DNA from: an uncultured virus (IMG/VR IMGVR_UViG_3300042350_004632)
Taxonomy: Duplodnaviria; Heunggongvirae; Uroviricota; Caudoviricetes
IMG/VR virus record: IMGVR_UViG_3300042350_004632
Span: 52,314 to 72,313 of that record
Reading direction: 5' to 3' (one strand)
Length of the DNA: 20,000 bases
The translations under genes and the position numbers were made by a program. The first letter of the stretch is position 1, and every line of letters begins with the position of its first letter. Below the pieces are notes generated by a model, which worked only from the letters and a program-made list of their open reading frames with translations, was not told the origin of the DNA and searched no databases. Shown one piece after another: positions 6,541-7,997 of this stretch.

Positions 6541-6696
6541 TGTCAAGTGGTGAAAGCTAGATCAGCAGGTAGACACACCCACTCGTCTCGTGGGCGCTGA
6601 GTTTGAGATAGATGTTTGGATATGGGTTGACCACAAGCCGGCTATTTTGTCCAACATTGAATCACAGCGTGGATGGTTCGAATCCTCCCTTGACAG
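6541..6696 (+). ncRNA. tRNA-like RNA with a 76-nt variable arm and non-canonical anticodon loop
   Basis: Acceptor TGTCAAG/CTTGACA + G; D-stem GTG/CAC with GGTAGA; anticodon stem CCCAC/GTGGG with loop TCGTCTC; variable arm 6595-6670 closed by CGCTG/CAGCG; T-arm GGA(T)GG-TTCGAAT-CCTCC. Confidence 0.8.
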
Positions 6697-6714
6697 CTTA
6701 AATATAGATACAAA

Positions 6715-6834
6715 AGGTTGATTGGGAAGCCTTACACCTTCATTAAAAAGTTGGAATGTAAGCAAGGAGGTGTAGGAACCGAAGTAAAGCCAATCGTAAA
6801 AGTAGATGTCCACGCACCCATCTTCTACTTTCCT
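6715..6834 (+). ncRNA. Unassigned structured RNA A (multi-stem)
   Basis: TGATTGG/CCAATCG, CCTTACACCTTC/GGAGGTGTAGG, AAAGTAGA/TCTACTTT, closed by AGG/CCT; GC-rich relative to flanking DNA. Confidence 0.55.
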
Positions 6835-6841
6835 AAAATTA

Positions 6842-6966
6842 TTGACACGCACGGCAACCGAAGTCATACTAGTCAAAGATTAGGCAATGCGAACAATCAT
6901 GAAGAATACCTCACTGTGCGTAGGTTAGTTTTAAGTTCTTCTGACCGTGGGGAAAGGCCCACTCCA
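6842..6966 (+). ncRNA. Unassigned structured RNA B (junction plus possible loop-loop pseudoknot)
   Basis: TGAC/GTCA, GATT/AATC, GAAGAA/TTCTTC, ACCT/AGGT, ACGCACGG/CTGTGCGT, terminal GTGGG/CCCAC, then TCCA. Confidence 0.5.
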
Positions 6967-7097: not shown

Positions 7098-7565
7098 GTG
7101 AAACAATATGATACTAAAAAATCAAACAGTTGGAAAAAATTAGGAATAAAACCTAAAAATATTCCACAACAAGAGTTCATTGACATATGTAATAGTAGTG
7201 AATCAATGGCTCACGCTGCTTCTAAATTAGGATTACATTTTAATACCTTTAGAAAATACGCCATGGGTTATGGTTGTTATAACACAAACCAATCTGGTAA
7301 GGGATTAAAAAAAGATTTTAAAAAAAGAATAACTAATATAAAAGACTACGCAACAAGAGCATCAGTAAGAAAACGTATTTTACAAGAAAATCTTATTCCT
7401 CATGAATGTAATGAGTGTGGAATTTCAGATTGGAAAGGTAAAAAACTATCACTACATTTAGATCATATTGATGGTAAAGCATGGAATCATGAATTATCTA
7501 ATTTAAGATTTTTATGCCCAAACTGTCATTCACTAACCAGTACATATACTGGAAAGAATAAATAG
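7098..7565 (+). CDS. Free-standing HNH endonuclease (putative homing endonuclease)
   Basis: GTG start. CNECG...LHLDHIDGKAWNHELSNLRFLCPNCHS HNH/zinc motif; N-terminal HTH-like segment SMAHAASKLGLHFNTFRKY. Confidence 0.9.
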   Translation: MKQYDTKKSNSWKKLGIKPKNIPQQEFIDICNSSESMAHAASKLGLHFNTFRKYAMGYGCYNTNQSGKGLKKDFKKRITNIKDYATRASVRKRILQENLIPHECNECGISDWKGKKLSLHLDHIDGKAWNHELSNLRFLCPNCHSLTSTYTGKNK

Positions 7566-7578
7566 TTCTTTAATTTAT

Positions 7579-7972
7579 GGGGGTAACATGGTATCGATTC
7601 GTAATCGGAGGATAGTATCACATGCAGAGGGAAGGCGTTCAAACCTCTTTAATATCCATGCTAAACAATAACTGACGAAATGTCAACAATGACCTTCGAC
7701 GACCTTATGGCGTTCGTAGGCGCCGACTACGCTGTAGCAGCTTAGTCCGCATCGGGTATGAAATCCTAGGAACAGAATTCATTGAGTACTCACAATCGAC
7801 TCATTAAATAAGGACTGTGAATTAGTTTTCTCTGTAGTCATAAAACAGAGTGGTGGATTCAGACCATGACGGTCATGCCCATTACGGTGCAATAGAAATA
7901 TAGTACTAAGCGTGTGAGACGTTGGTATTATTGTTCATTACGAAGACGTGGGTTCGAATCCCACTACCTCCA
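7579..7972 (+). ncRNA. ssrA: tmRNA
   Basis: GGGGGTA/TACCTCC acceptor with G3:U70, discriminator A, T-arm GTGGG-TTCGAAT-CCCAC, CATGC/GCGTG helix, ATAACT resume context, tag ORF 7674-7745 ending YAVAA*. Confidence 0.95.
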
Positions 7973-7997
7973 CTATATTTATAATAAATAATTATAT

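Follow-up and report, generated by a model that had tools for sequence, protein, structure and literature searches.

The window analysed here, a 20,000-nucleotide stretch of an uncultured Caudoviricetes virus, lies in a 72-kb virus contig with T4-like tail and replication genes, GroES and GroEL, queuosine-type genes and thymidylate synthase (scan of 59 of the 73 ORFs). The nearest cultured-phage match to its GroEL belongs to a Flavobacterium phage (57.6%). A tRNA-like RNA that forms a 156-nt cloverleaf starts four nucleotides beyond the end of a 76-codon ORF, with tRNA-Leu and tmRNA downstream of it. The features referred to throughout are as follows.

6541..6696, + strand: whole tRNA-like RNA gene, positions 1-73; C74 is at 6697, and the CCA is not encoded and would need adding
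6541..6547, + strand: acceptor stem 5′ strand, U1-G2-U3, pairing with 6689-6695 (A72), 7/7 pairs
6550..6576, + strand: D arm, class II (Leu-like), with 3-bp stem, A15, G18 G19 and a 20a position
6556..6567, + strand: D-loop insert of 12 nt, phage-only and variable, with a GCT/AGC mini-stem; the palindrome is weak here
6578..6594, + strand: anticodon arm, GUC at 6585-6587, U37, C38
6595..6621, + strand: variable arm core, 5′ side, with V1, a bulge, V2, a putatively loop-E-like internal loop (GATA) and V3
6622..6634, + strand: distal motif ATGGGTTGACCAC of the variable arm, conserved, a small hairpin and an optional module
6636..6643, + strand: self-complementary tip AGCCGGCT, a candidate dimerisation site typical of phage copies
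6648..6670, + strand: variable arm 3′ side (V3, GAA of the internal loop, V2, V1) and U48
6671..6688, + strand: T arm with G49-C65 and A51-U63 (tRNA-Asn-type pairs) and one bulged U
6696..6697, + strand: discriminator G73 and C74
6967..7052, + strand: ordinary tRNA-Leu(TAA), same small RNA cluster
7579..7975, + strand: tmRNA

The D stem pairs 6550-6552 with 6574-6576, leaving four nucleotides between G19 and C23 (the 20a type), and the anticodon stem pairs 6578-6582 with 6590-6594 around a loop, 6583-6589, that reads U32 C33 G34 U35 C36 U37 C38. The variable region, 6595-6670, is exactly 76 nt long, the T loop is TTCGAAT, and G73 at 6696 is followed by CTT. A first-pass annotation had described a perfect 7-bp acceptor stem, a canonical T loop with a bulged T in the T stem, an enlarged D loop with a GCT/AGC mini-stem, C33 and a pyrimidine at 37 around a nominal GTC anticodon, and a paired 76-nt variable arm, and all of these are present where it placed them. 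It had also allowed for a match to a described Rfam family: Rfam 15 gave none to the element in the window up to E 5, and searching 8 host loci up to E 1 likewise left the element unmatched. ARAGORN did not report the element in the window. The folding energy of the whole element is not significantly different from that of shuffles (z -0.72; variable arm alone, z -2.03), and it is the comparative (covariation) evidence given below that shows the element not to be a chance fold.

The surrounding cluster holds other features. An HNH endonuclease gene (7098-7565) is inserted between tRNA-Leu and the tmRNA, whose tag, DEMSTMTFDDLMAFVGADYAVAA, is unusually long and is conserved in relatives. A second conserved non-coding element, at 6783-6836 (and 6715-6790), consists of GCCAATCGTAAAA followed by a hairpin with a compensated stem; its variable 5′ part starts GGTTGATTGG and may pair with the element. 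It recurs at 30 distinct viral loci, in many cases with tRNAs on either side, has no Rfam match, and is represented by contigs in 4 of 4 RNA libraries examined. A third element of about 125 nt (6840-6966) lies directly 5′ of tRNA-Leu, has variable inner stems and no Rfam match, and was found at 9 distinct viral loci. Upstream of the window, the same contig carries QueD, QueC, QueE and GTP cyclohydrolase genes (L019:1994-6885), a gene set that suggests 7-deazaguanine DNA modification.

The RNA family and its identity signals

Relatives were collected by pattern scans that fixed the anticodon, or the tip motif and T loop, or the D motif, T loop and 3′ end with the anticodon and arm left free, so that no feature was fixed in all scans; G73 and C74 were fixed by the pattern for part of the viral set. 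Once five tRNA-like sequences outside the family and the degenerate copy L453 had been removed, the family comprises at least 251 distinct copies: at least 165 come from viruses and at least 86 from cellular genomes, most of these Bacteroidota. Among the 80 genome loci listed, 75 parse as family members, and host locus titles include Chitinophaga, Pedobacter, Aquirufa, Saprospiraceae, Flammeovirga, Sporocytophaga and other Bacteroidota; the exceptions are one assembly and one 518-bp contig, the latter from an alphaproteobacterial bin and carrying a phage-type copy. A metagenome scan yielded 112 further distinct copies.

In an alignment of 90 sequences, double-sided changes occur at 28 of 38 pairs, in the four tRNA arms and in V1, V2 and V3, which supports the first-pass argument that the intact stems speak against decay. 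Pairing is found in 95.9% of cells, a value reached by none of 500 shuffles and compared with 43-54% in slid controls. The covariance model that the annotation had called for was built on these 90 sequences (R1); the window, itself one of the training rows, scores 120 bits. Applied to 150 Bacteroidia genomes, R1 separates members (at least 92 bits, 106-212 nt) from ordinary tRNAs (at most 66 bits) and finds the RNA in 26 of the 150, about one in six, bearing in mind that model and patterns favour the features used to build them. Family arms are 70-96 nt and total lengths reach 212 nt. The shortest members, of 106-125 nt, lack the distal motif and keep the proximal arm core; the motif is likewise missing from 21 of 35 model-found host copies and 50 of the 112 metagenome copies. 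The family is thus real and conserved, and it is undescribed within the literature and databases searched.

One small member stands apart: L529:1501-1576 (minus strand; genome G159) is 76 nt long, with a short variable loop, an AUC anticodon, U1-A72 and G73, in a genome that has gatB, AsnRS and AsnA. It is possibly a minimal or ancestral form. Copies with a UUC (Glu-type) anticodon occur at L527:1501-1610 and 1723-1831 (G139) and at L719 and L742; they could be charged by GluRS to give Gln, or could reflect a relaxed reading of position 34.

The conserved bases are those of an aspartate tRNA in the anticodon arm and discriminator, joined to an acceptor and T stem of another kind. Among the 251 matches listed, GUC is present in 251, C38 in 239, G73 in 250, C74 in 250, U1-A72 in 251 (including 165/165 viral copies) and G2-C71 in 249, whilst CCA is encoded in 30. 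The 35 model-found host copies all have U1-A72, G73, C74 and G49-C65, and 34 have A51-U63; the anticodon is GUC in 33 and UUC in the two G139 copies. U1-A72 is found in 112/112 metagenome copies, A72 being fixed by that scan's pattern, and position 34 is not absolute there (A34 in 3/112, U34 in 2/112). The aspartate identity set is G73, G34, U35, C36 and C38 (PMC9976931), and the window has all five. The annotation's Ser/Sec-like identity gives way to this set with U1-A72. The GUU of tRNA-Asn is absent (C36 in 251/251 copies listed), as is the G1-C72 first pair of decoding tRNA-Asp. All five hosts checked have separate, ordinary tRNA-Asp genes, which begin with G1; their five sequences have G49-U65 and G51-C63, opposite to the family pairs (G49-C65 in 231/251, A51-U63 in 187/251 and G51-C63 in 4/251 of the matches listed).

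A decoding loop needs U33 and a purine at 37. Purine 37 occurs in only 3/251 of the matches listed, and position 33 is U in 162/251 and C, A or G in 89/251; the window itself combines C33 and U37 with the 76-nt arm and the G49-C65/A51-U63 pairs, none of which belongs to a decoding tRNA-Asp. The first-pass claim that the RNA is unlikely to decode is upheld. Some traits it had stressed are lineage quirks rather than family features: among the matches listed, the bulged T is found in 22/165 viral and 0/86 host copies and C33 in 69/165 viral and 9/86 host copies, and the D-loop insert is likewise a feature of phage lineages. In sum, that reading stands as regards a selected, non-decaying tRNA-like RNA unlikely to decode, and falls as regards the amino acid.

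The other conserved pairs have published roles. U1-A72 is a signal for amidation by GatCAB, which G1-C72 and U20a prevent (PMC9976931); efficient amidation is seen for a tRNA that combines U1-A72 with a GUC anticodon, and tRNA-Asn with C36 is also a good substrate (PMC1635274). G49-C65 and A51-U63 exclude Asp-tRNA-Asn from EF-Tu (PMC1904265). Since the conserved bases match these rules, the RNA appears to be an Asp-identity body with two amidation-substrate signals and without a decoding loop. One feature stands against amidation. The D loop has a 20a position, and an added U20a costs amidation 7-fold, whilst amidation of tRNA-Asp with U1-A72 is down 120-fold unless U20a is removed (PMC1635274). 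The three host tRNA-Asn examined also have 20a, and class II geometry may change its effect.

Distribution in Bacteroidota and their phages

The co-occurrence sample consists of 150 Bacteroidia genomes, many of them incomplete, around a centre (G001) that is a carrier by construction; GatCAB was judged by gatB alone, one genome (G277) was counted as gatB+ and RNA-negative, and the Fisher values for the counts ignore kinship. In this sample gatB was found in 111 genomes, the RNA in 26, GlnRS in 57, AsnA in 5, AsnB in 19 and AsnRS in 121. The RNA is present in 26/111 gatB+ and 0/39 gatB- genomes, and all 26 carriers have AsnRS; gatB was also found in 5/5 hosts of a separate check. Amongst GlnRS+ genomes, in which GatCAB would have no other evident use, it occurs in 14/15 with stand-alone gatB, 0/38 without gatB and 0/4 with a GatB-AspS fusion, as against 12/92 of the gatB+ GlnRS- genomes, and it is found in none of the 22 genomes with AsnA or AsnB. 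We read this as three alternatives for asparagine: a synthetase, a fused relaxed AspRS, or the tRNA-like RNA. Sampling across the phylum gave 9 true pattern matches in 201 genomes and 13 strong model matches in 150 (overlapping the class sample), all gatB+.

The alternatives do not account for every genome. Eighty of the 92 gatB+ GlnRS- genomes are without the RNA, nearly all of them also without AsnA or AsnB and with the same His-less AspRS as carriers, and 21 of 38 gatB- GlnRS+ genomes lack both AsnA and AsnB. Most of the former and these 21 thus have no synthetase, no fused AspS and no RNA, which means that other asparagine routes exist; the AsnB test also misses some. Twenty-nine seemingly AsnRS-less genomes proved to be an artefact of the E-value limit (5/5 retested have AsnRS, and no archaeal-type non-discriminating AspRS was found among those retested), so this group is no control for the AspRS comparison. 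The first pair of tRNA-Asn does not separate carriers from other genomes. A72 is kept in 16 of the 17 carriers with a match, which counts against a role of the RNA in asparagine synthesis, and one carrier, G004, has a G1-C72 tRNA-Asn, which counts in favour.

Turning to AspRS itself, on a tree made by a quick method from 50 genomes (25 carriers, 20 of the 39 gatB- genomes, the 4 fusions and G175, without the 80 gatB+ GlnRS- RNA-less genomes) the carrier label has to change 12 times, and well-supported branches force 5 of these changes. Its sister contrasts are G248/G209, G274+G301/G240 and G325+G183/G021; G240 has AsnB, and G021 has AsnB but no gatB and no RNA, in contrast to its sisters. The His of RDHG is found only in the 4 GatB-fused AspS and in 0/96 stand-alone Bacteroidia AspRS. 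RDHG occurs in solved Asp/Asn ligases and RDLG in the Asp ligases of E. coli and Thermus, and we take the His to be an Asp/Asn-ligase signature from PDB alignments; a literature search for it returned no paper. His-less AspRS can be non-discriminating in Bacillus and Staphylococcus, and if that held here the RNA would not be needed. In the four fusions (L563-L566; G269, G296, G235, G322) a single ORF of about 1,110 aa joins GatB to an additional AspS with the His, and each may be a one-chain, transamidosome-like protein.

Host copies lie outside tRNA clusters (one tRNA in 80 loci listed) and beside a regulator. A divergent Lrp/AsnC gene is found 130-400 bp upstream in 55/75 host loci listed, and within 1.5 kb in 23/26 model-found carriers, an independent class sample. 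The best PDB match of the protein is E. coli AsnC (E 1.6e-35; next 1.4e-21), and its top NCBIfam match is AsnC, below cut-off. In E. coli, asnC and asnA are divergently arranged. Here, too, an AsnC-type regulator lies beside a presumed asparagine-making gene, with the difference that the neighbour is an enzyme gene there and an RNA gene here, and that regulation here is proposed from gene order. The E. coli AsnC protein is an activator of asnA, and asparagine dampens its action (PMC8707732). AsnC homologs in 5 RNA-less genomes adjoin neither asnA nor asnB, so the effector of the regulator can only be suggested. No AsnC homolog was found in the 4 GatB-AspS fusion genomes or in 5 other gatB+ genomes; when the latter 5 were searched more deeply with the model, the RNA did not appear either. 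Some Pedobacter-type loci (L505, L506, L368, L376, L380) have tandem pairs behind asnC, a short-arm then a long-arm copy, and tandem copies reach four in L427.

Viral copies, on the other hand, have a tRNA or tmRNA nearby in 52/80 loci listed, and differ from host copies in structure. D-loop inserts of 11-25 nt occur in 108/165 viral and 1/86 host copies (matches listed), and short inserts contain a palindrome of at least 6 nt in 30/50, against 8.7 in shuffles. At the tip of the arm a perfect palindrome of at least 6 nt is present in 83 of 95 distinct viral sequences (200 base shuffles: mean 19.3, maximum 34), compared with 17/49 host tips (shuffles 12.6). The viral palindromes have 18 different 6-mer cores, a diversity that argues for selection on self-pairing, though related tips are not independent. 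Phage copies also drift more than host copies at 33 and 37. No class II synthetase or YqeY was found in four large carrier phage records, which points to reliance on host enzymes. Asn makes up 6.7% of phage proteins against 5.2% of host flank proteins, in a rough comparison, and our best guess is that the phage copy boosts asparagine supply during infection. Neither a phage-type nor a host-type query matched the element in cultured phages, and the nearest cultured phage by GroEL has no copy in the 41.6 of 160 kb examined. Among 4 RNA libraries, an 81-nt piece of a relative is present in one and a 122-nt contig of a relative in another; such contigs cannot show transcription, ends or splicing and were not counted as expression.

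A proposed role in asparagine synthesis

Taking these data together, we think it rather probable that the RNA is a dedicated non-decoding cofactor on which AspRS and GatCAB make asparagine, and of which phages carry copies; as part of this explanation, it would be native to Bacteroidota and have been acquired by their large phages. From the observed fold, conservation, gene context and co-occurrence we infer the following biochemical steps. The AsnC-type regulator would turn the RNA on at asparagine shortage, as gene order suggests, and RNase P, 3′ trimming and CCA addition would mature it. Applying the published rules to the sequence, ordinary host AspRS would load Asp via GUC, C38 and G73, the pairs G49-C65 and A51-U63 would exclude the Asp form from EF-Tu, and GatCAB, admitted by U1-A72, would amidate Asp to Asn. 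The missing purine 37 and the bulky arm would prevent insertion of Asn at Asp codons. The Asn ester would be freed by hydrolysis or by a factor possibly binding the conserved core of the arm, and the released Asn loaded onto tRNA-Asn by AsnRS. With Asp identity on the RNA, a discriminating AspRS would be enough, and the asparagine made would have to come off; the route would thus substitute for AsnA or AsnB and make a non-discriminating AspRS unnecessary. In phages it would act as an auxiliary metabolic RNA, probably in dimeric form. Two details are awkward for a fixed anticodon, namely the UUC of the G139 copies and the 76-nt AUC form in an AsnA+ genome. Free Asn-tRNA has a half-life of 7 min (PMC1904265), and binding of the amidated Asn form to EF-Tu could slow release.

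A fuller version, to which we give slightly less than an even chance, holds that this is an ancient Bacteroidota RNA class serving as a reusable asparagine-synthetase scaffold without a protein gene, which stands in for asnA under AsnC, is charged by ordinary AspRS, works with an otherwise orphan GatCAB, stays off the ribosome and through its arm releases Asn or hands it on, and of which large freshwater phages carry copies whose palindromic arms form dimers or rings. Three routes to Asn are known (PMC9437257). If the asparagine-carrier reading is correct, a tRNA-shaped RNA makes a free amino acid, a third route beside AsnA/AsnB and relaxed AspRS, and a non-coding RNA joins the auxiliary metabolic genes of phages. 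It would also explain why GatCAB is kept beside AsnRS and GlnRS in many Bacteroidota, a gap raised in PMC4206432, where Bacteroidetes with AsnRS, GlnRS and GatCAB and no Asn synthetase are described and a relaxed AspRS is assumed.

Whilst the RNA family fits no known class, the mechanism would plug into a known pathway. Indirect Asn synthesis by a non-discriminating AspRS and GatCAB in Thermus, Deinococcus and Bdellovibrio (PMC4206432, PMC1635274) shares the proposed chemistry, the U1-A72 and T-stem signals and the genomic signature, GatCAB beside AsnRS and GlnRS with no Asn synthetase; it differs in using a relaxed synthetase and a decoding tRNA-Asn, where we find an Asp-identity, non-decoding-looking RNA with a 70-96 nt arm. 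The non-elongator tRNA-Gly of Staphylococcus (PMC1904265) is likewise kept from translation by weak EF-Tu pairs (A51-U63) and serves metabolism, but is of normal size, acts in cell-wall synthesis and gives its amino acid to a transferase with no conversion on the RNA. Bacterial class II tRNAs (Leu, Ser, Tyr; RF00005) share the 3-bp D stem, A15-U48 and an arm at the variable position. Ordinary tRNAs of 80-86 nt also score 45-66 bits on R1. The family differs in an arm that exceeds theirs three- to fivefold in length and has a conserved core of its own, in the GUC anticodon and in having no Rfam match. Allo-tRNAs and SelC* (PMC5389517) are also non-canonical metagenome cloverleafs, with 8/4 or 9/3 branches as against 7/5 here.

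The strongest competitor, though an unlikely one, is a regulatory sensor or sink, in which the RNA is charged and amidated and its charge state is the signal, or it titrates AspRS or GatCAB. The tight link to the regulator gene would fit, as would the conserved, protein-binding-like internal loop in the arm, and the release step that asparagine supply calls for has no known agent. The mutual exclusion of the RNA with AsnA/AsnB and with the GatB-AspS fusion fits a supply role instead, and tandem copies, up to four, fit a need for quantity. Slightly less likely again is that the phage copy has been repurposed, either as a decoy for anticodon nucleases, as the annotation had proposed, or for other tRNA-attacking defences, or as an AspRS/GatCAB inhibitor, with dimers formed via the palindromes. 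Phage copies sit in tRNA clusters, have gained palindromic tips and D-loop inserts absent from host copies, drift more at 33 and 37, and come from large phages of which the four checked encode no class II synthetase. They nevertheless retain U1-A72 and the tRNA-Asn T stem, needless for a nuclease decoy, and phage proteins are the richer in Asn by the rough comparison above. A decoy is possible for phage copies; a pure decoy leaves the host pattern unexplained.

That the RNA translates, by placing Asn at Asp codons in programmed mistranslation or as a plain extra tRNA-Asp, seems improbable. It has a full cloverleaf, 77/86 host copies listed have U33, and an Asn-charged form could bind EF-Tu (PMC1904265), yet the rarity of purine 37, the non-U33 copies, the long arms and the ordinary tRNA-Asp genes of the hosts all speak against it. 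We place still less weight on the RNA being a precursor whose variable-arm insert is an excised intron, as proposed for Lak phage tRNAs, in which long inserts have been called introns (10.1101/356790): a spliced product would still carry the non-decoding loop and U1-A72, the arm branches off where it does in class II tRNAs, differs freely in length between copies and has a structured core that is retained in hosts, and the pattern finds no insert-less twin in 149/150 genomes, the one short form having AUC. tRNA-Sec has a UCA anticodon and a long acceptor branch, and the family has neither, its branch being 7/5. A Ser/Sec-type mimic recognised via the long arm and G73 is the least likely reading of all: G73 and G2-C71 do belong to the bacterial Ser set (PMC9976931), but C72 is absent in 251/251, G30-C40 occurs in 5/251 and C11-G24 in 47/251 of the matches listed, and that set includes no anticodon bases, so that the invariant GUC and C38 would go unexplained.

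Several further comparisons were set aside. Pairing of the GUC anticodon with GAC of the tip motif was rejected, both being invariant (no covariation) and the tip optional, and hairpin, hammerhead, Y RNA and T-box readings were rejected by eye, their core motifs being missing. A tRNA-Asp-overlapping candidate in PMC10690425 differs in size (66 nt) and in its marine origin; the alignments of that paper may hold a family fragment. No description of the family or of a dedicated Asn-synthesis RNA was found in the full-text literature searched, most subscription papers being outside it. T4 RNA C and D (139 and 119 nt), which the annotation had cited, are of similar size and also lie in a phage tRNA cluster, and RNA C shares a T-loop-like 3′ hairpin; they do not match the family model at E 0.01, and the family, chromosomal in Bacteroidota, is no phage oddity of their kind. 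Even if the mechanism proposed here is wrong, a tRNA-like class of 106-212 nt with more than 150 viral variants has been missed by ARAGORN and Rfam.

Other unusual tRNA-like genes were noted as well. A tRNA-Leu-like gene at L189:585-726, which is not among the family counts, carries a long, structured insertion in the region of its anticodon arm. In a separate phage family the acceptor, D and T parts are constant (AGTCAGG ... CCTGACT A) and enclose a freely variable middle of 40-110 nt with no fixed anticodon; its 11 distinct copies, several per genome, include L008:492-630, L008:765-922, L072:1528-1665 and L317:197-331 and 456-545, with further loci in L011, L094, L252, L264, L271 and L306.
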